Positions 7,556 to 56,400 of a DNA stretch of 64,000 nt are shown here, one piece after another (the first letter of the stretch is position 1; each line of letters begins with the position of its first letter). The DNA comes from an uncultured Clostridia bacterium (GTDB taxonomy: Bacteria; Bacillota; Clostridia; TANB77; CAG-508), in NCBI GenBank assembly GCA_944386775.1, contig CALXCJ010000002.1:221-64220 (forward strand), written 5' to 3'. A program made the position numbers and the translations under genes. The notes under the pieces were generated by a model. It was not told the DNA's origin, ran no database searches, and saw nothing but the letters and a program-made list of their open reading frames with translations.

Positions 7556-7742
7556 TTAAATAAATTATTATCAAAAAATTTATTAAAATTTAAATAAATA
7601 TAATTATTGTTCAAAAATTAATTTAAAATTAAATAAATAATTATTTTCCAGAAGATAATTTGAAATTTGAATAAATAATTATTGCCTAGAACTTAATTTA
7701 AAATTTAAATAAATAATTATTGCCCAAAAATTAATTTAAAAA
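7556..7742. repeat. Five degenerate 34-39 bp tandem units derived from the gatD 3' end
   Basis: TT(A/G)AATAAATAA recurs at 7556, 7590, 7629, 7667 and 7705, matching the gene end TTGAATAAATAG at 7504-7515. Three units contain the palindrome AATAATTATT. Confidence 0.8.
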
Positions 7743-7757
7743 TAAGTTAATTTTTGG
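7724..7757. terminator. Bidirectional hairpin between convergent gatD and the HNH gene
   Basis: CCAAAAATTAA (7724-7734) pairs with TTAATTTTTGG (7747-7757). The stem is 11 bp and AT-rich. Confidence 0.45.
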
Positions 7758-7801
7758 ACAATAATTTTAATGTCTTTTTCTGTAAACATAGTTTTAAAGT
7801 T

Positions 7802-12430: not shown

Positions 12431-13765
12431 TTAATGTTCTTTTAAATACCTTTTTAACAAAAAGGTCAAGAAATATGGAAATGTATAAAATTTTCCGTTA
12501 AATCCTATATTTTTATTACATAATTTTATACCATATTTAATATCTTTATATAATTTGCTATTTATCAAATTATTAAGAGAAATTGTTGCATTATCATTTG
12601 CTTTTACTTCAATAGGGATTAATGAATTTTTATCCCTTAGCATAAAATCCATTTTGATTTTTTTACTATCATCTTTATAAAAATATAAATCATATCCTTC
12701 TTTTACTAGCATATCACTTACAATATTTTCATACAATGCACCCTTATATGCATTTATATTTTCGTTATTTCTTAAATCTTCTTGAACTTCTTCATCTAAT
12801 GAACCAATTAGTAAGCCGGTATCTGCAAAGTATAGTCTATAATTATCAGGATTATAGTTTCCTTTTAATGGAAGAGAAGCTTGCTCCATTGCATAAGAAA
12901 TATTTACAATTCCAGCATTTGCGAGCCATTCTACAACACCTACATATTCCCTGTTTCTTGCTCCATTTGCTATTTTTGATATTTGAAACTTTTTATTTTC
13001 ATTCCCTAAAAATACTGGTACTTTTCTATAGCAATTCAATATTTTGGTTTTATCTAGTCCTCCTGCGTATTTTGTTATATCTTCTTCATAATCTAGCAAA
13101 ATCTGCTGTTGCATTTTTAAAATTCCACTAAAATTTTTGTTTTCTATAAATTGGCTTACTATTGCAGGCATTCCTCCTACTATCATATATTCTTTAAAAT
13201 TAGTCATCATGATATCATATTGCATTTTACTTAATGGTTTTAGCTCTTTCATATGTTTATATAAATCATTAATTTGTTCATCACTATAACCTTTAGCCCA
13301 TAAGAATTCTTCAAAGTCTAGAGATCTTAATATATAGTCTTCTTTATTTCCCACACTATTTGATTCAATTTCTTTGTAGTTTATTCCCATTAAAGAACCT
13401 GAACAAATTACATCGTATCTACCGTCTTCTTTAAAGGCTTTTAATGAAGTAGCTGTACTTACACAGTCTTGCATTTCATCAAAAAAGATTAATGTATTAT
13501 TTTCGGTTATTTCAAATTCTGGCATTTTTAGTGTTATATTTTTTATTATATTATCAACTTCAAATCCTTCTTCAAATATTGTTTTAAATTGTGGTTGAAG
13601 TACAAAATTTATTTCAATAAATGTTTTATAATTGTTCTTTCCAAAGTTTCTAATTGCATTTGTTTTTCCAATTTGCCTTGCTCCTTTTACTATTAAAGGT
13701 AATTTATTGTGATTATTTTTCCATTCTATAAGATAATTATCAATTTTTCTTTTTAATCTTTCCAT
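12431..13765 (-). CDS. AAA+ ATPase, COG1373/DUF4143 type
   Basis: Walker A GARQIGKT and Walker B IFFDEMQ in a 444-aa protein. AGGAGG lies upstream. A paralog is at 27065-28366. Confidence 0.75.
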   Translation of the reverse strand: MERLKRKIDNYLIEWKNNHNKLPLIVKGARQIGKTNAIRNFGKNNYKTFIEINFVLQPQFKTIFEEGFEVDNIIKNITLKMPEFEITENNTLIFFDEMQDCVSTATSLKAFKEDGRYDVICSGSLMGINYKEIESNSVGNKEDYILRSLDFEEFLWAKGYSDEQINDLYKHMKELKPLSKMQYDIMMTNFKEYMIVGGMPAIVSQFIENKNFSGILKMQQQILLDYEEDITKYAGGLDKTKILNCYRKVPVFLGNENKKFQISKIANGARNREYVGVVEWLANAGIVNISYAMEQASLPLKGNYNPDNYRLYFADTGLLIGSLDEEVQEDLRNNENINAYKGALYENIVSDMLVKEGYDLYFYKDDSKKIKMDFMLRDKNSLIPIEVKANDNATISLNNLINSKLYKDIKYGIKLCNKNIGFNGKFYTFPYFLTFLLKRYLKEH

Positions 13766-13920: not shown

Positions 13921-16107
13921 TTAAAATGTTACATTATCTCCAAAATGTTCTTCCAATTTAATTTTTGAATCTTGTGATAAGTTTATATTGCCTGTTAAAA
14001 TTATTTTAGTATCTGGGTTTAATTCTAGTAGTGCTGTTGCATCAATTATTGAATTGTTGCTTAAATCGATGGTTAAATTAGTATTATTTTTCAACACTTT
14101 TAGGTTTTCTAGATCTTCACTCCATAATGTATTATTACTTAAATTAAGATTTGTTAAATTAGTTAGTTTAGAAAAATCTATCATTCTTCCATGTAAGTTA
14201 TTATTAGATAAATATAAATTTTGTAAACTTGTTATTTGAGATACGTTTTCAAAATTAGATATATTCGGATTATTAGTTAAGTCCAATATTAATAACTTAT
14301 TAAATTTTGATAAATCAGGTAATTCTGTTAAACTACTACTACTTAATCCTAATTTTGTAATTTTATTAACATCACAATTTACTATTGTTTTTAAGCTTTC
14401 TGTTGAAACATGTAAAGCATTTAAATTTGAAATAATATCTTCTATTTCTGATAAATCAACATTATTATTTTCTCCAATTAGATATAACAGTTTTAATTTT
14501 TTCAAATTATTAATAGGTTTTATATTTTTTAATTGATTATAATTTAGTTCAAGTCTTGTTAAATTAGTCATACTTTCCAATATTTGTTGTGATTTCGTAT
14601 CTTCTAATGTTAATTGATTATCACTTAGCACCAATTCCGCTAATTGAGTTAAACCTTCTAATGGTTCTAATGTTGTTAAGTTTTGATTATTTAATTTTAT
14701 TTTTTTATAATTAGTAAATAATCCTAATTTATCTACATCTAAAAAAATATCTCCACCCCTATCTAAAATCTTTCCTATTTCATTTAATGCCTCTAATCTT
14801 TTTCCTGTATAATTTTCTCTATTGCCATCTATTTTTGGATTGTGAAGCAAGTCTAGTGAAGTTAAAGAACTATTTGAACTTAAAGGTGTAATATCAACTA
14901 TATCATTATTACTCAAATATAATACTTCTAAATTTTTTAGATTTTCTAATCCTTCTATATTTTCTATTTTGTTATTTGCTAAATTTAAATTTGTCATATC
15001 AACGAAATTATCTAGTCCATCAATTTTTGTTATTTCGCTATTTGTTAAAGTTAGATCTTTTATATTTTTTAATTCTGCTAGTCTTTTCATATTGACATTT
15101 AAATTTCTGCAATTTAGAATTTCTAAATTATCACAAAATTTTAAAGCATCTATTATATTATCCCAATCTGTTCCAAAATTTCTTCTAAACTCCCTTAATT
15201 GTGATAAATTCTTAATTACTGTGTAATCTTTATCCGGTCCATAGTTTATAATTAAAGTTTTTAATTTAGTACAATTTTCTACACCATCCATTTTAGTAAT
15301 GTTAGGAGCATTGCTGGCATTTTCTCCTAATGTCAAACTTTCTAAATTAGGAAAAAATACTAAATCTTCTAAACTGTCCACTGCTGGATCTGTTATTGTT
15401 AAGCTTGTTTGGTTTTTCATCCATTCAAACTTCATTTCTTCTTCTGTTGCACCTGATATTGTTGATACATATTCACTAAACGCCTTACTTGCAAATCTTA
15501 TTTTTGTTTCGTCTTCTAATATCTTGTCTTCTAACTCGTCTCCATATTCACTTCCATTACTTGCTATGTATTTTACATTTAAATTGTCATCTATTAAAAA
15601 TACATCTTTTAAGCTTGCTATATTGCCTTTTCCTAAGCCTTGCATTCCGTCTACTGCATCTTCTTTTAGCACATAGTACATATAGTAGTTTCCGTCTTCT
15701 GCTTGCTGTACTGTTCTATTTACTTTTCCTTCTGTTAGTAATGTTTCTGGTGTCATTTCTTCTTGCTCTATTACTTTTTCTGTTTGCTCTAATCTTAAAT
15801 TTTCTTTTACTGCTGCAACGGCTGTTTCCATTTTGGCTGAGTTTGCTTGGTTTAGTATGCCGTTTGGTGCCGATAGTGTGCTAATTGTTACTCCTGCAAG
15901 GATTAGAAGGACTATGATTGTTACTATTAATGCAATTAGTGTTATTGCATTTTCTTTTATTTTCTTTACTTCCATTATTTCTTTTGCTGCCTTTATTCCG
16001 TTTGCTTTTTTTATTTCATTTGCTTCATTTGTTTCTTTTGCTTTCTTTATTTTCTTTGCTTTGTTTGTTTCTTTTGTTTTTCTTGATTTTCTCTTTTCTT
16101 TTAACAT
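13921..16107 (-). CDS. Leucine-rich-repeat surface protein with pilin-like N-terminal hydrophobic module
   Basis: 728 aa. Lys-rich repetitive leader, then AITLIALIVTIIVLLILAGVTISTLSAPNGIL, then about 20 LRR units (LxxLxLxxNxIxxI). GGGAGG lies before the ATG. Confidence 0.8.
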   Translation of the reverse strand: MLKEKRKSRKTKETNKAKKIKKAKETNEANEIKKANGIKAAKEIMEVKKIKENAITLIALIVTIIVLLILAGVTISTLSAPNGILNQANSAKMETAVAAVKENLRLEQTEKVIEQEEMTPETLLTEGKVNRTVQQAEDGNYYMYYVLKEDAVDGMQGLGKGNIASLKDVFLIDDNLNVKYIASNGSEYGDELEDKILEDETKIRFASKAFSEYVSTISGATEEEMKFEWMKNQTSLTITDPAVDSLEDLVFFPNLESLTLGENASNAPNITKMDGVENCTKLKTLIINYGPDKDYTVIKNLSQLREFRRNFGTDWDNIIDALKFCDNLEILNCRNLNVNMKRLAELKNIKDLTLTNSEITKIDGLDNFVDMTNLNLANNKIENIEGLENLKNLEVLYLSNNDIVDITPLSSNSSLTSLDLLHNPKIDGNRENYTGKRLEALNEIGKILDRGGDIFLDVDKLGLFTNYKKIKLNNQNLTTLEPLEGLTQLAELVLSDNQLTLEDTKSQQILESMTNLTRLELNYNQLKNIKPINNLKKLKLLYLIGENNNVDLSEIEDIISNLNALHVSTESLKTIVNCDVNKITKLGLSSSSLTELPDLSKFNKLLILDLTNNPNISNFENVSQITSLQNLYLSNNNLHGRMIDFSKLTNLTNLNLSNNTLWSEDLENLKVLKNNTNLTIDLSNNSIIDATALLELNPDTKIILTGNINLSQDSKIKLEEHFGDNVTF

Positions 16108-16221: not shown

Positions 16222-16415
16222 ATAATTAAGTATAAGACTTAATTATAAACATCAAATCCAGCATTTTCCCATTCTTCATAGGATTTAGCGCTCCAAAATT
16301 TCAAATTTTTTATTTCTTTTTTTAATTATTAACTTAATATTGACTTAAAACAAAATTAGTGGTATAAAATACTTAACAAATTTTTTCAAAATAATTAATT
16401 CTTATACTTAATTAC
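16222..16415. promoter_or_regulatory. Candidate invertible promoter (inverton 1), assembled in the OFF orientation relative to the LRR gene
   Basis: Site ATAATTAAG-TATAAGA-CTTAATTAT (16222-16246) matches the reverse complement of 16391-16415 at 23/25 positions, with the 7-bp core exactly inverted. The internal promoter TTGACT-17-TATAAA (16340-16368) fires rightwards, away from the gene. Confidence 0.65.
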
Positions 16416-27064: not shown

Positions 27065-28366
27065 TTAATCTATACAAAATGTAGCATATAAAGGAATGGA
27101 TTTTATATTATTAGAAAATCCGAAATTTTTTGTAGAAATTCTTATTGCATATTTAGGCTGATATCTTTTTATATAAACATTTAAACTCTGACTTCCAACA
27201 TTATCATTTGCCTTTACTTCAATTGGTATAATTCCATCATTATTATATAAGATGAAATCAACTTCAGCTTGATTTCCAGACTCCCAATACATTAATGGAA
27301 TATTTTTTGCTACCAATTGTGTAGCAACGTAATTTTCAGCAATTATTCCTTTATATTGTAAAAGATTATCTAATATAATATCATTATATTTTACTTGTAA
27401 CATGCTTACTAAAATTCCAACATCACTTAGATACAATTTAAAATGGTCATCAATAATAAAACCTAATGGTGGAATTTCTGGTTTCTTTAATATAGAACAT
27501 TTATGAATCATTGTGCTTGAAAGTAGCCAGTTCAATGCTGTTTCATAATCTCTTTTTCGTGCATTTGAGGATATTTTCCCATATTGAAATTTATTACTCA
27601 TATTTCCTAATTGCGAAGGAATAGATTTGTATATTGTTTCTATCTTGCTGGCTTCAAATTTATTTGAAACATATTTGTTCATATCATTTAGATAAGATTG
27701 ATAAATATCTTCAATAATAGTTTTATCAAATTTCAATATATCTTTTTCATTAGCAATTATATCTTTTACTGCTTCTGGCATTCCTCCAACACATAAATAT
27801 AGTCTGTATAAATTTAGTGCTTTTTCATGCAATACCGAATCCATAGGTGTACTTTTTATATAACATTTTTTAATTTCGTCAACGAGAGATTCACTACCAT
27901 TTGCAATCAAAAATTCTTCAAAATCCATAGGATACATATTTAACATTTTAACTTTTCCTACTGGAAATGATGAATGCATCCTTTTTAATTTTACGCCTAG
28001 CAAACTGCCGGCACATATTATTTTAAAAGGTTTTTGGCTTTCATTAAAGTATTTTAATGCACTTATTATTTCTTCACTTTCTTGAACCTCATCGAAAAAT
28101 ATTATAGTGTTTTCCAAATCAATGTCTTTATCCAAATAAATTTTCATTCTATTAAATTTTTCAGCTGTATTAATTTCTTCCTTAAATATTTTTATAATCT
28201 CAGTTTGCTCTAATAGATTTATATAAATATATTCTTTAAATTCTTTCTTGCAAAATTCGTCTATAATATATGTTTTGCCAATCTGTCTTGCTCCTATTAT
28301 CATTAATGGTTTTTCAATACTAGAATTTTTCCAATTTAATAACTCTTGATAAATTTTTCTATACAT
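27065..28366 (-). CDS. AAA+ ATPase, COG1373/DUF4143 type (paralog)
   Basis: Walker A GARQIGKT and Walker B IFFDEVQ. Start set at ATG 28366, 7 nt after GGAGGTGA. Confidence 0.75.
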   Translation of the reverse strand: MYRKIYQELLNWKNSSIEKPLMIIGARQIGKTYIIDEFCKKEFKEYIYINLLEQTEIIKIFKEEINTAEKFNRMKIYLDKDIDLENTIIFFDEVQESEEIISALKYFNESQKPFKIICAGSLLGVKLKRMHSSFPVGKVKMLNMYPMDFEEFLIANGSESLVDEIKKCYIKSTPMDSVLHEKALNLYRLYLCVGGMPEAVKDIIANEKDILKFDKTIIEDIYQSYLNDMNKYVSNKFEASKIETIYKSIPSQLGNMSNKFQYGKISSNARKRDYETALNWLLSSTMIHKCSILKKPEIPPLGFIIDDHFKLYLSDVGILVSMLQVKYNDIILDNLLQYKGIIAENYVATQLVAKNIPLMYWESGNQAEVDFILYNNDGIIPIEVKANDNVGSQSLNVYIKRYQPKYAIRISTKNFGFSNNIKSIPLYATFCID

Positions 28367-28504
28367 AAGCTCACCTCCATTGTTATTATACAATATATTA
28401 TTACACAAGTCAATTGAATTTCACGTTTCTTACACCACATATTATGCGTTGTTTCACGTTTTTTACACTATATAAATCACTCATTTGAATAGTCATTTGA
28501 AACA

Positions 28505-41819: not shown

Positions 41820-43442
41820 TTATTGGGTTTTTAGCCATTCTATAAATTCTTCATAACTATTTAAATTGTCTTCTACTCCTTTTATACTTTTTTCTATATA
41901 GTCTTGATTGTTTATTGCTTTTACATTTAGTGTATTTAAATAGTATAGGTTACTTAATTTATCAGTATTTGCTTCTTGTCTTCCTATTACTGCTCCTATG
42001 TTTGTTGTTCCTTCTACTTGTCCTTTGTTATAGCAGTTGGTTATGTCAAATGTTTCTGCATTTCTTCCTATTATTCCTCCGACTTGGTTTTCTCCGCTTA
42101 TTTTTCCTTTATTGTAGTTATTTTCTATTCTTCCTGATGTTCCTGTTTGTGATGTCCAACCTACTATTCCTCCGGATATTCCTTGTACTGTTTGTACTTC
42201 TCCTTCGTTGTAGCAGTTTGTTATATTTGCTTCACAGTCTGTTCCTATTGAACCTGCTATTCCTCCGACATTATTTGCATCTGTATCTGTTTTTGTGGAT
42301 GTTATGTTTCCTGTATTTGAACAGTTTGATATATTAGTATTTGGATACAATTGACCTACTATTCCTCCTACATTGTCACTTCCTGATACATTTCCAGTAT
42401 TAACACAATTAGTTACATTATAACCATTTATACCAGTATATGTTGTACCTATTATTCCGCCAACCAACATACCATTTTTTGATATGACTTCTCCTGAATT
42501 TGTACAATTTTCTACTGAAGCATCTGAAACACCAACTATTCCTCCAACATTTCCATTTTCACTTTTTACTATTGTGTTAACATTATTACAATTTTTTACT
42601 TCTCCTACATTAATTCCTACTATAGCACCAACTGCAGAAAATATATTTCCAGCAATAGTACACCCTTCTATATAGCTATTTTGAATTGTTAAATTTTGAA
42701 TAGTGTTACCACTCATACCAAATAATCCATATATTCCCGCTTCAGTTGTATTATTTATATATATTCCAAAAATAGTATTATTATTTCCTTCAAAAGTCCC
42801 AGAACAAGTCATTATAGTCTTCCACTCTGTACCTAAAGTTAATACCCCCTCTTCCTGCCTTGCTCCCATATCTAAATTATTTTCTAGATATACTGTTGTT
42901 TCTTCTGTTATTTCTTTTTCTTCTGTTATCCCTACACTTTGTTTTTCTGCATCGTCTACTTCCCCATTACAATACCTTGCAAAAAAATTCATTTGTGCTG
43001 TATTATATATATGCCAGTTAAATTCTTCATCTATTTCTGGGACCTCTGATGATATTCCATCCCATACATCTACTCTTCCTTCTAACACTGTTCCATCTTC
43101 ATATACTGTTACTACTACGTCATCTCTTTCTACATAGTACATATCTCCTACGCTTTCATTTTTTGTTACTGTTGCTCCTGCTACTTCGTTTAGGGCTTCT
43201 TCTGTTGTTTTTCCGTTTGATGTGTAATCGTCTATTAGTTTGTCTGATAATGCTATTTTTACTTCTTCTAATAGTGTGTTTTGGTTTGATTCTTCTTTGG
43301 CCTTTGTTGCGTTTTCTAGTATTCCATTTGGTCCGGTTAGTGTTGCTATTGCAACCCCTGCTAAAATTAGTAATACTATTACTGTTATTACTAGTGCGAT
43401 TAGTGTGATTCCTATCTCGTTTTGTAGTCTTTTGTTTTTCAT
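41820..43442 (-). CDS. GLUG-repeat surface protein with pilin-like N-terminal module
   Basis: N-terminus MKNKRLQNEIGITLIALVITVIVLLILAGVAIATLTGPNGIL, followed by about 10 repeats of the type NVGGIVG....I.NC.N.G.V. Confidence 0.8.
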   Translation of the reverse strand: MKNKRLQNEIGITLIALVITVIVLLILAGVAIATLTGPNGILENATKAKEESNQNTLLEEVKIALSDKLIDDYTSNGKTTEEALNEVAGATVTKNESVGDMYYVERDDVVVTVYEDGTVLEGRVDVWDGISSEVPEIDEEFNWHIYNTAQMNFFARYCNGEVDDAEKQSVGITEEKEITEETTVYLENNLDMGARQEEGVLTLGTEWKTIMTCSGTFEGNNNTIFGIYINNTTEAGIYGLFGMSGNTIQNLTIQNSYIEGCTIAGNIFSAVGAIVGINVGEVKNCNNVNTIVKSENGNVGGIVGVSDASVENCTNSGEVISKNGMLVGGIIGTTYTGINGYNVTNCVNTGNVSGSDNVGGIVGQLYPNTNISNCSNTGNITSTKTDTDANNVGGIAGSIGTDCEANITNCYNEGEVQTVQGISGGIVGWTSQTGTSGRIENNYNKGKISGENQVGGIIGRNAETFDITNCYNKGQVEGTTNIGAVIGRQEANTDKLSNLYYLNTLNVKAINNQDYIEKSIKGVEDNLNSYEEFIEWLKTQ

Positions 43443-43509: not shown

Positions 43510-43703
43510 ATAATTAAGCAAAAAACTTAATTATATTTTCAAAAATCGTTAATTGCTTTATATTACTAGATTTTAGAGGTTTTTTGTGTCTTGGATTTTA
43601 CTACATTTTTATAAAAAACATTTTTCATTTATTGACAATTTTTGCGTTTAATGCTATATGTTTAATGTATTCATTAATTTAATTAATTTTTTTGCTTAAT
43701 TAC
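43510..43703. promoter_or_regulatory. Candidate invertible promoter (inverton 2), OFF relative to the GLUG gene
   Basis: ATAATTAAG-CAAAAAA-CTTAATTAT (43510-43534) matches the reverse complement of TTAATTAAT-TTTTTTG-CTTAATTAC (43679-43703) at 22/25 positions, with the core exactly inverted. Internal promoter TTGACA-17-TATATG (43632-43660) fires rightwards. Confidence 0.65.
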
Positions 43704-48602: not shown

Positions 48603-50300
48603 TCATTGCCAATATAGTATAGGGTATCTATTATTTATATTATTTGTGTCTTCTTTAAAACTATTTCCTAATGTTACATATAAACTTTGTAATTCTAAAC
48701 TTGTTTTAAAAGAACACTCATTTCCTATTATAGAATTGTTGACTCCGCATAAATCTGTTGTTACGTTTTCTAGAGAATATGAATTATAAATCTTTCCAAT
48801 ATATGTTGTATCTGTTTCTGCATAATAAAATTCATTATTATTTCCAACTAAACTTCCTTTTTTCTCTATTTCTCCATTAACATTTCCAACATTATAGCTA
48901 TTTTCTAATGTTCCTCTATTTAGTCCTATTAATCCTCCAACACATTCATATAAACCTGTTACTGCACCTGTATTATAGCAATTCATAATATTGGATTCAT
49001 TCATTCCAACTAATCCGCCAATATTAGAATTGCCATTTTCATTCTGACCTATCGCTTTTATGTCTCCTGCATTGTAACATTGACTTATTAAAGTATTTAC
49101 AGAATTATATCCACATATTCCACCTACATAGTATTGTGCCTCTACATCTCCAGTTGTATAACAATTATTTATAGCTGATTTTTCTCCTAAATATCCTGTT
49201 ATACCTCCTACCATATTTTCACCATTAACAATTCCTGTATTATAACAATTTACTGCATTTGAATTTAGGTTAACACTACCAACTACTCCTCCTACATGCA
49301 TAGTTCCTGTAACTTCTCCTATATTATAACATTCTTTTATATTAGAATCTTGAGCAACATATCCTGCCACTCCTCCTGTAAATTCACTTGTTCCATTTAT
49401 TCTACCTTCATTATGGCCATTTGTTATAATTGTATTAACATATGCACATCCTACAATTCCAGCACCATATGTTGAATTTATGTTTGCATTATTAGAGCAA
49501 TTGCTTATTACACTATTATTATAAGCATATCCAACAATTGCTGCTGTTGCACTTCCACCAGTTATGTTGCAATTTTCACCTATATTTAAATTAATAACTT
49601 TTCCACTATCTATGAGACCAAACAGCCCTTGTACTTTATTGGTTGTATTTATATAAATTCCATCTACATTATGATTTTTGCCATCAAATATCCCACTAAA
49701 AGGAATATTTGATTCATTATCAGGTGATGAATTTTCATTTAGATATAATCCTATAGGTACCCATAGTTCATTTATATCTAAAGTTATATCATTTACTAAA
49801 TATATATACCAGCCATTATAACTATTTCCTTCATTTACCTTATCTCTAAAATTCTTCAATTCATCTACTGTACTTATTTTTAACATATTTTCTTCTGATA
49901 TTACTTGTTTTTCATCTACATAATACATTCTTTTAGTATCATTCATATTTACTATAAAACTTCCATCACAATTATCTGTAACTGTGAAGTCTTTATTTTT
50001 TCCAAACTGATCTTTTATTGAATTTTCTAGACTTTCTTTTGTTATTTTAAATGTATCAAGATCCTCCATCTTGCTAGACGTTGCAGCCAGTTCAAGTCCT
50101 TCTTTTTCCTGTGTTTTTTCTGTTTTATTCTTACTTTCACTAGCTCTAGTTAAAATTCCATTTTCCCCAGTTAGTGTCGCTATTGCTACTCCTGCAAGGA
50201 TTAGTAAAACTACAATTGTAATTACCAACGCCACCAAAGTAATCCCTCTTTTACCTTTTGTTTTTTCTTTCGTTTCTCTCCCAATTCTTAATTTTTCCAT
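48603..50300 (-). CDS. GLUG-repeat surface protein with pilin-like N-terminal module (paralog)
   Basis: N-terminus MEKLRIGRETKEKTKGKRGITLVALVITIVVLLILAGVAIATLTGENGIL, then repeats of the type VGGI.G......I.NCYN.G.V. Start set at ATG 50300 directly after GGAGGAAAAA. The track ORF uses an upstream TTG. Confidence 0.8.
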   Translation of the reverse strand: MEKLRIGRETKEKTKGKRGITLVALVITIVVLLILAGVAIATLTGENGILTRASESKNKTEKTQEKEGLELAATSSKMEDLDTFKITKESLENSIKDQFGKNKDFTVTDNCDGSFIVNMNDTKRMYYVDEKQVISEENMLKISTVDELKNFRDKVNEGNSYNGWYIYLVNDITLDINELWVPIGLYLNENSSPDNESNIPFSGIFDGKNHNVDGIYINTTNKVQGLFGLIDSGKVINLNIGENCNITGGSATAAIVGYAYNNSVISNCSNNANINSTYGAGIVGCAYVNTIITNGHNEGRINGTSEFTGGVAGYVAQDSNIKECYNIGEVTGTMHVGGVVGSVNLNSNAVNCYNTGIVNGENMVGGITGYLGEKSAINNCYTTGDVEAQYYVGGICGYNSVNTLISQCYNAGDIKAIGQNENGNSNIGGLVGMNESNIMNCYNTGAVTGLYECVGGLIGLNRGTLENSYNVGNVNGEIEKKGSLVGNNNEFYYAETDTTYIGKIYNSYSLENVTTDLCGVNNSIIGNECSFKTSLELQSLYVTLGNSFKEDTNNINNRYPILYWQ

Positions 50301-50418
50301 TTTTTCCTCCAATATTATTTTTTATTAATTTCATTTAATAAAATATCATATTTTTTACTTCCTGTCCATTATTTTTTATCATATTGAATGATATTTTTGT
50401 TTGAATTATACTAATTTT

Positions 50419-50611
50419 ATAATTAAGCTAGAAAATTAATTAAAATTACAAATTTATACTTTGCTACTGAGTAAAGATTTTTCACTAGAATTATTAATAT
50501 TTTTTTAATTTTAAAATAATAATATCCATTCATAATATATTGACTTTTTTTATTTAAAATGCTATATATTTAATTAATATTAAAATATCATTAATTTTCT
50601 AGATTAATTAA
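50419..50611. promoter_or_regulatory. Candidate invertible promoter (inverton 3), OFF relative to the second GLUG gene
   Basis: ATAATTAAG-CTAGAAA-ATTAATTAA (50419-50443) matches the reverse complement of ATCATTAAT-TTTCTAG-ATTAATTAA (50587-50611) at 21/25 positions, with the core exactly inverted. Internal promoter TTGACT-17-TATATA (50540-50568) fires rightwards. Confidence 0.6.
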
Positions 50612-50818: not shown

Positions 50819-50863
50819 AAAATAATCTTAGACATATTATACACTTAAATCTAAGATTATTTT
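50819..50863. terminator. 14-bp-stem hairpin downstream of the Rpn remnant
   Basis: AAAATAATCTTAGA pairs with TCTAAGATTATTTT around a 17-nt loop. On the plus strand it is followed by ACTTTTTATT. Confidence 0.5.
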
Positions 50864-50890: not shown

Positions 50891-51289
50891 CTATAATTTT
50901 TCTATTTCACTTTTTGTTAACCCTGTTATTTCTTCTATTTCTTTTACTTGCATTCCTTTAGCTTTCATATTTTTTGCTATTTCTTTTTGTTTCTTTTCTT
51001 CTCCAATCTTTTGTCCTTCTTCTCTCGCTCTTTTCTCTTTTGTAAATTCTTGATATTCTCCCATTACTTTCCAATCGTTTATTCTTTGCATTACTTCATC
51101 TTGACTTATTTCTTCTAGCTTTTCTTTTGCTTTTTTTACTCCTTCATTTTCATCCATTATCTTTTTCACCTCTTCTGATTTTGGATTCTCTAAGAAATAT
51201 AACCACTCTAATAATTTGTCTTCTTTATTTCTTTTTTCCTTATATATCTTAGGTAATTCAATTCGTATATTCAGAATATTCCCCCTCAT
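50891..51289 (-). pseudogene. C-terminal remnant of an Rpn/YhgA-like PD-(D/E)XK recombination-promoting nuclease (putative transposase family)
   Basis: IRIELPKIY...LEWLYFLENP...IAKNMKAKGMQVKEIEEITGLTKSEIEKL matches the C-terminal half of the family. The roughly 170-aa N-terminal nuclease domain is absent. The ORF abuts the stop of the upstream gene. Confidence 0.55.
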
Positions 51290-56256: not shown

Positions 56257-56400
56257 TTTTATAAATTAACTTATAGTTATCTTATAAAGTATCTATACTA
56301 TTTTATGAATTAGCTTATAACTATCTTATAAAGTAACTTATACTATTTTATAAATTTGCTTATACTTATTTTACAAATATTTTTTATTAGTCACGACTTT
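56257..56400. repeat. Three 44-45 bp tandem units ending in the 3' end of the small pilin-like gene
   Basis: TTTTATAAATTAACTTATAGTTATCTTATAAAGTATCTATACTA-like units start at 56257, 56301 and 56346. Confidence 0.7.

Follow-up and report, generated by a model that had tools for sequence, protein, structure and literature searches.

In gut Bacteroidota, phase variation of the cell surface is known to proceed mainly through invertible promoters; to our knowledge, these are poorly charted in Firmicutes, especially in uncultured lineages. The invertons that Mpi controls in Bacteroides fragilis are flipped in trans by an unlinked recombinase and diversify the cell surface, with most loci OFF at once, and the recombinases of the E. 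coli fim switch are tyrosine enzymes encoded next to the element they invert. The two classes of enzyme place different demands on their sites: tyrosine recombinases require homology between the partners over a 6–8-bp overlap region, whereas for serine invertases a central dinucleotide on the dyad is enough. In loxP, FRT, and dif this overlap is identical in the partners and sets directionality; inverted sites give inversion. The Mpi system of B. fragilis comprises 13 regions (PMC5903667). The cwpV switch of C. difficile (Cdi1) consists of an invertible segment of ~195 bp with imperfect inverted repeats of ~21 bp, its reference orientation is OFF with ~5% ON cells, and its recombinase RecV—encoded far from the switch—serves several loci (PMC2784873, PMC5903667). 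Among gut Clostridia, inverton group 139 of the hCom2 community (~230–260 bp) was experimentally seen flipping and is associated with tyrosine-recombinase group 35 (PMC11892184).

We analysed a 64-kb stretch of DNA from an uncultured member of the Clostridia (hereafter, the window) and focused on the segment at 50420–50610, which is probably a promoter inverton: a cassette of 191 bp bounded by two inverted 23-bp sites and belonging to a multi-copy, strongly OFF-biased family of surface-protein switches. The first-pass annotation had already taken this locus for one of three inverton-type cassettes in the window, with a promoter aimed off a GLUG gene and hence in the OFF orientation; our results support that reading. 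Its description of the parts also agrees with the window sequence. The 25-mers ATAATTAAGCTAGAAAATTAATTAA (50419–50443) and ATCATTAATTTTCTAGATTAATTAA (50587–50611) span 193 bp, are complementary at 21 of 25 positions, and contain cores, CTAGAAA and TTTCTAG, that are exact inversions of each other; a promoter TTGACT-17-TATATA with TGC in front of its −10 element occupies 50540–50568 on the + strand, 18 nt before the distal site; and the ATG of the minus-strand gene, at 50300, is 119 nt away from 50419.

The functional unit is better stated as a site of 23 bp with an 8-7-8 arrangement, present at 50420–50442 and 50588–50610. The candidate gene-proximal recombination site reads TAATTAAG / CTAGAAA / ATTAATTA, its core (50428–50434) lying between two inverted 8-bp half-sites, and the gene-distal site reads TCATTAAT / TTTCTAG / ATTAATTA, its core (50596–50602) being the exact reverse complement of the proximal one. 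Between the sites lies an interior of 145 bp (50443–50587), the presumed invertible part, which carries the predicted sigma-A-type promoter in its distal third. This promoter—TTGACT at 50540–50545, a 17-nt spacer whose terminal TGC forms an extended −10, and TATATA at 50563–50568, with A rather than T as the last base of the hexamer—aligns with the conserved TATTGACT-17-TGCTATAT block of related cassettes. It points off the GLUG gene, and the switch is therefore OFF. The proximal part of the interior holds only a weak hairpin (50459–50476), and no convincing terminator was found inside the cassette.

The repeat at this locus is beyond chance and is no artefact of AT-richness. Inverted 25-mers with at least 21 of 25 matches and a spacing of 100–400 nt occur at four places in the window, namely the three cassettes and a pair at 7597/7747, as against a mean of 0.1 and a maximum of one in 30 local composition-preserving Markov shuffles. 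The site-pair pattern marks three loci where 0.00 are expected, and the promoter pattern TTGACW-N14-TGNTATA is found exactly three times in the 64 kb (0.03 expected), each time inside a cassette and on the + strand. What the repeat pair of locus 3 encloses is a predicted promoter that could drive the gene in one orientation only. In a whole-window search for inverted repeats, the cassette pairs 16211–16246/16391–16426, 43511–43537/43676–43702, and 50420–50457/50573–50610 came out at or near the top. A generic sigma-70 scan of the window lists none of the three cassette promoters because it demands T at position 6 of the −10 hexamer; the hexamers in question, TATAAA, TATATG, and TATATA, all have an extended −10 TGn. 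The pair at 7597/7747—the sole other inverted pair of this quality in the window—sits in an intergenic stretch (7560–7771) of about four imperfect direct repeats (AAATAAATAATTATTGYYCAAAAATTAATTTAAAAT) that closes with an inverted copy, and is unrelated to the cassette motif.

All six sites of the window follow the pattern TAATTAAK-N7-MTTAATTA, with two inverted 8-bp half-sites around an asymmetric 7-bp core, and the site-to-site spacing in the three cassettes is 169, 169, and 168 bp. The cores differ by locus (TATAAGA, CAAAAAA, and CTAGAAA) and are exact reverse complements within each. Every cassette lies 68–119 nt 5′ of a minus-strand surface-protein gene—one LRR and two GLUG genes—and all three promoters aim off these genes. 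Cassette 1 (TAATTAAG / TATAAGA / CTTAATTA ... TAATTAAT / TCTTATA / CTTAATTA; 16223–16414), with its promoter TTGACT-17-TATAAA at 16340–16368 (+), is upstream of the LRR protein gene (13921–16107, −). Cassette 2 (TAATTAAG / CAAAAAA / CTTAATTA ... TAATTAAT / TTTTTTG / CTTAATTA; 43511–43702), with TTGACA-17-TATATG at 43632–43660 (+), is upstream of a first GLUG protein gene (41820–43442, −). Two paralogous genes for AAA_14 + DUF4143 ATPases are also present on the minus strand (12431–13765 and 27065–28408), one of them immediately downstream of the LRR gene of locus 1. Elsewhere in the window, at 19254–20600 (−), spoIIIAE is seemingly fragmented within an otherwise complete spoIIIA operon: a 196-aa ORF matches profile positions 83–243 of 321 and is overlapped by one of 71 aa in a different frame, and the N-terminal part has no ORF. 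A frameshift, pseudogenisation, or faulty assembly could account for this.

The sole gene facing cassette 3 (48603–50300, −) encodes a 565-aa GLUG surface protein (Pfam Glug, E = 1.4e-20). Its N-terminus is a pilin-like hydrophobic helix (GITLVALVITIVVLLILAGV) that scores just below the threshold of the Pfam N_methyl profile (18.8 vs 21.2 bits). In the AlphaFold2 model (pLDDT 91.4), the hydrophobic helix takes up residues 21–44 and a long helix extends to residue 79, the remainder forming a small alpha/beta domain and then a right-handed beta-helix, which is long. Among solved structures, the GLUG beta-helices of streptococcal IgA1 proteases match best; next come other beta-helical adhesins and proteins that bind glycans. 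In metagenome assemblies, the protein family has over 3,000 relatives, almost none of them named. The same pilin-like N-terminus (GVTLIALAITIIVLLILAS) begins a 159-aa protein encoded at 56387–56866 (−) with no cassette upstream; this product may be a constitutive core subunit of a structure that the large proteins join.

Between the proximal site and the start codon runs a leader (50301–50419, −) with GGAGG at 50310–50306 and a weak promoter-like match, TGGACA-17-TATTTT (50368–50340); Rfam returned no known RNA family or riboswitch in this leader or in the rest of the window. On the other side of the cassette, a bidirectional terminator-like hairpin (50819–50863; z = −5.1 on the + and −3.8 on the − strand) stands between cassette 3 and an upstream Rpn/PDDEXK_2 fragment. 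This 132-aa ORF (50891–51289, −), directly upstream of the cassette, matches only the C-terminal half of the Rpn/PDDEXK_2 recombination-promoting nucleases (TIGR01784 positions 148–273) and looks truncated; it is conserved in two other metagenome contigs.

These elements suggest how the switch would operate. Once a recombinase supplied from another part of the genome had engaged both sites, strand exchange within the core would turn the interior around. As the cassette now stands, the promoter—predicted from its motif—would fire off the gene and give rise to a transcript of ~300 nt ending at the hairpin 50819–50863, leaving the GLUG gene OFF; by terminating this outward transcript, the hairpin would also insulate cassette 3 from the GDE operon. 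In the flipped cassette, transcription from the promoter would cross the proximal site and the 119-nt leader to reach the gene at 48603–50300, which would then be ON, the leader becoming part of a 5′ UTR of ~155 nt.

To place the three cassettes in a wider context, we scanned one genome per species from 185,579 species for the site pair, with the arms imposed by the pattern and the cores and interior left free. This way, we obtained 33 site pairs: 32 cassettes in four uncultured-Clostridia MAGs (17 in CANRPI01, from rabbit; 6 in CALXUX01; 7 in CAKNNA01; and 2 in the Hadza MAG CAKOXK01) and one unrelated match on an archaeal contig. Together with those of the window, this makes 35 cassettes of the same 8-7-8 layout with 14 different 7-bp cores. 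While the two inverted arms TAATTAAK ... MTTAATTA are present in all 70 sites by virtue of the search pattern, the cores were free in the search and are exactly inverted within their locus in 34 of the 35 cassettes, the remaining one having a single mismatch. Outside ~26 bp, complementarity between partner sites is at background level. JGI metagenomes and viral contigs, scanned in the same way, yielded only tandem repeats and hairpins with non-inverted cores, which serve as negative controls.

The interiors align with one another as well, the promoter block TATTGACT-17-TGCTATAT lying at a fixed distance from one site, with TTGCAY as a variant in the rabbit MAG. One gene family adjoins 27 of the 35 cassettes: the genes facing them share the N-terminus GITLIALVITIIVLLILAGV, and the encoded protein almost always starts ...K(G/A)ITLIALVITIIVLLILAGVSIATLTGENGIL. 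Where the target is recognisable, as in these 27 cassettes, the promoter is directed off the gene 25 times and towards it twice, namely in L007 of the rabbit MAG (99 nt from the start) and L034 of CAKNNA01 (36 nt). Rabbit and Hadza cassettes carry a strong bidirectional terminator hairpin (−15 to −26 kcal/mol) beside the promoter-distal site, as exemplified by rabbit L016 (7695–7886) and L024 (5264–5454) and by Hadza L008/L033, with an A-run, a stem of 15–20 bp, and a U-run. An insulating terminator inside the cassette is accordingly a trait of these subfamilies and is absent from the subgroup of the window, CALXUX01, and CAKNNA01. Also within CANRPI01, an identical core, TACAATA, is common to 12 of the 17 cassettes, so recombination between loci—with large inversions or deletions—is possible there in principle; the three cores of the window all differ.

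The genome with the ON-oriented rabbit cassette L007 also contains OFF paralogs of it that share its leader of 99–100 nt. In comparison with one of them, L005_2204, the leader and the start of the gene are 92% identical and colinear, and the interior is 58% identical as it stands, rising to 97% after reverse-complementing between the cores. At the level of sequence, such a difference is what conservative inversion leaves behind when its breakpoints fall in the cores. Because what separates this ON/OFF pair of paralogs is an inversion precisely from site to site, the comparison argues that the cassette family inverts: both orientations occur in it, with breakpoints at the repeats, and L034 provides a further ON example. 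Inversion is thus well supported for the family, and locus 3 itself may be flipping at present.

Locus 3 recurs in two independent metagenome contigs (ERZ24773372 and ERZ28616110) that are 100% identical to it over ~650 bp, both in the OFF orientation. Exact-protein look-ups of the three target proteins and two flanking proteins returned no record; it was that of the GDE neighbour protein that led to these two contigs. The locus is therefore OFF in three of three assemblies, and the ON orientation was seen in none; since an assembly shows the majority state alone, its activity is neither proved nor refuted by this weak negative evidence. Among the loci of close homologs (P0001, P0002, P0020, and P0074) there is no ON allele of locus 3. 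The P0002 locus (L047–L056), found in at least 10 samples, has a GLUG gene 90% identical to that of the locus-3 product and no cassette; the gene is 5′-truncated, starting inside the hydrophobic helix, and has a stop codon within it; it may be a paralog that is silent or a pseudogene. P0074 resides on a Mob_Pre element with a fixed promoter, and the 187 nt upstream of P0001 contain no cassette.

Could locus 3 be a locked or fossil switch, one that stopped flipping through site drift or loss of its recombinase, with the gene permanently silent or driven by the weak leader promoter? We consider this unlikely. It would fit the three OFF assemblies, and locus 3 does have two arm mismatches vs one in cassettes 1 and 2, as well as an outer right half-site, ATTAATTA, that is unusual within the window/E13/ERR subgroup. 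The first-pass annotation had gone in the same direction by calling the arms the most degenerate of the three cassettes and the switch possibly decaying. This idea finds no support, because the variant half-sites of locus 3 are typical of the family: seven cassettes of CALXUX01 and CAKNNA01 (L006, L010, L013, L015, L017, L019, and L030) likewise have TCATTAAT as their inner half-site on the promoter side, ATTAATTA instead of CTTAATTA is the commonest inner-arm form in these two MAGs, and both cassettes of the Hadza MAG use ATTAATTA on all arms. Moreover, the core of locus 3 is perfectly inverted, and its promoter, leader, ribosome-binding site, and 565-codon ORF are all intact. As for the assemblies, a majority in the OFF state is what an OFF-biased switch is expected to give, the cwpV reference being OFF with ~5% ON cells (PMC2784873).

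That the family leaves fossils speaks for the possibility of a locked switch, and two loci illustrate it. At CAKNNA01 L017 (6876–7298 of CAKNNA010000030.1), which is syntenic with locus 3 (between accC and the GDE gene), the cassette persists while its target gene is down to a 24-codon remnant (MVKKENSRKTREEAITLVVLVITI and a stop), which makes it a switch that is orphaned or fossil; at the syntenic position of CALXUX01 (L030) there is no cassette at all. Genuine decay in the family takes another form than what is seen at locus 3. P0020 (L066–L075), a paralog at greater distance that comes from the same species group and sample series, has a shortened cassette at −311 to −134 from its start codon, TAATTAAG-TATAAAA-CTTAATAA ... 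TTATTAAG-TTTTATA-CTTAATAA, with a site spacing of 155 bp. Here the half-sites CTTAATAA and TTATTAAG are degenerate and the TATAAAA core is perfectly inverted; the orientation is fixed, with the promoter outward (OFF) in 10 of 10 samples, and the leader has an independent promoter, TTGAAG-17-TATAAT. P0020 may thus be a switch bypassed by a constitutive promoter.

Judging by the anatomy of the sites, the enzyme that acts on the cassettes is most probably a tyrosine recombinase. This class is favoured because of the 8-7-8 layout, the odd centre, and an identity that runs across all seven core positions and no further; the asymmetric 7-bp cores are identical between partners in 34 of the 35 cassettes, as expected of a tyrosine-type overlap. 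It is improbable that the same inverton is driven by a serine invertase of the Hin/Gin/Mpi type. In its favour, a master enzyme over many dispersed promoter invertons can be a serine enzyme, as Mpi is in Bacteroides fragilis (cited in PMC5903667). Yet the fully conserved 7-bp centre, being odd, leaves no central dinucleotide on the dyad; identity extends over all seven positions where a serine enzyme would require two; the layout matches that of tyrosine-recombinase core sites; and no Hin-like ORF lies near any cassette.

No recombinase gene was detected in the 64-kb window (Pfam on ~50 ORFs), and none came up in the ~310 kb flanking all cassettes, where a Xer profile and a Hin query were run over every ORF of 100 aa or more from the window and 32 MAG blocks; the lone recombinase near a cassette, in L023, is IS91-associated. 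With no recombinase beside the cassettes, the putative tyrosine invertase would therefore be unlinked and act in trans. We had considered the L023 product—an Xer-like tyrosine recombinase encoded 340 nt from a cassette—as the invertase and rejected it as an IS91-associated integrase: the gene of an 84%-identical relative overlaps that of an IS91-family Y2 transposase with no cassette nearby, and most other relatives reside on contigs of ~2.4–2.5 kb, as expected of a multicopy IS. The Xer-like recombinases of 285–295 aa in L023 (1673–2500) and L060–L065 suggest that these Clostridia carry a multicopy IS91-type element with an accessory integrase.

Two further explanations dispense with inversion. 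The cassettes might be MITE-like non-autonomous elements with terminal inverted repeats and an outward promoter, their differences in orientation being due to independent insertions. They are indeed short (~191 bp), multi-copy (17 in one MAG), and delimited by inverted repeats, and copies within one genome resemble one another. This notwithstanding, we regard a transposon origin as very improbable: no target-site duplications flank the cassettes, which are tightly tied to one gene family at fixed distances and with a conserved leader; their orientation, 25:2, is non-random; their ends hold a locus-specific, covarying 7-bp core, unlike transposon ends; and the ON and OFF paralogs differ by an inversion in place with breakpoints in the cores. 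Hardly credible is a pair of palindromic operators (TAATTAA-N9-TTAATTA) bound by a dimeric transcription factor that loops the DNA and rearranges nothing, since—for all that each site is near-palindromic and that a constant 168–169 bp, or ~16 helical turns, separates the two around a promoter—it leaves unexplained the asymmetric, locus-varying yet mutually inverted spacers and the inverted interior in paralogs, and gives no account of a promoter aimed off the sole adjacent gene.

If the cassettes are promoter invertons, as we think probable, they may be parts of a larger whole. We put forward as a tentative, still doubtful model that, in a clade of uncultured, low-GC gut Clostridia, one unlinked tyrosine recombinase runs a genome-wide, strongly OFF-biased regulon of antigenic variation, in which dozens of near-identical lox-like cassettes gate adhesins and shared cores add a reshuffling of the chromosome. 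If so, a cell would show one or a few of many alternative adhesins with pilin-like anchors (GLUG beta-helix, LRR, and others), and shared cores such as TACAATA (12 of 17 cassettes in one MAG) would also allow inversions and deletions between loci. The signature of the cassettes—8-7-8 sites, a site-to-site unit of 168–169 bp, and a promoter at a fixed position—is clean and easily searched. Given many copies per genome and a single target family, ON/OFF ratios, mutual exclusivity, and a co-occurring recombinase are testable from metagenomic reads. Should the enzyme be found, the minimal 23-bp site with its freely variable cores could furnish a set of orthogonal recombination sites.

Set beside the known systems, the cassettes resemble the cwpV switch in their clostridial host, their surface-protein product, and their short distance upstream of the start codon. 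In cwpV, however, the promoter lies outside the invertible segment and the OFF state is due to a leader terminator, whereas here the promoter lies inside the cassette, and cassette 3 does not have the features of this terminator-based type. Likewise, RecV sites vary by locus and have no common 8-7-8 motif, and C. difficile has 7 switches as opposed to the up to 17 near-identical cassettes per MAG here. E. coli fimS (FimB/FimE) is similar in having its promoter on a short invertible element between inverted repeats, in being OFF-biased, and in controlling an adhesive surface structure; it differs as a single locus with 9-bp inverted repeats on a 314-bp element with IHF/Lrp sites, and in that its recombinases adjoin the switch, while no recombinase is adjacent to the cassettes.

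With the Mpi invertons of Bacteroides fragilis, the cassettes have in common that many dispersed promoter invertons bear one shared inverted-repeat motif. Mpi, in contrast, is a serine invertase with hix-like repeats and a Bacteroidota-specific promoter, and its targets are capsule operons and not single protein genes; the odd, fully conserved 7-bp centre and the lack of a Hin-like ORF nearby set the cassettes apart from the whole Hin/Gin/Mpi class. Nor do they have the traits of a MITE or other non-autonomous transposon, given the missing target-site duplications, the single gene family, and the 25:2 orientation. In their anatomy, the sites come closest to loxP, FRT, and dif, with two inverted arms around an asymmetric overlap of 6–8 bp, although the arms measure 8 bp here vs 13 bp in lox and FRT and 11 bp in dif, and those sites serve in nature to resolve plasmids or chromosomes rather than to regulate genes. 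Group 139 of the hCom2 study (PMC11892184) likewise consists of invertons from gut Clostridia, but its recombinase is nearly always within 5 kb, unlike that of the cassettes; in the text supplements of that study, neither TAATTAAG nor CTTAATTA was found. We found no description of the cassette motif or of the system in the searchable literature. By function, then, the cassettes are classical promoter invertons of the fimS/Bacteroides type, combined with a Mpi/RecV-like organisation—multi-locus and in trans—and a lox-like minimal site.
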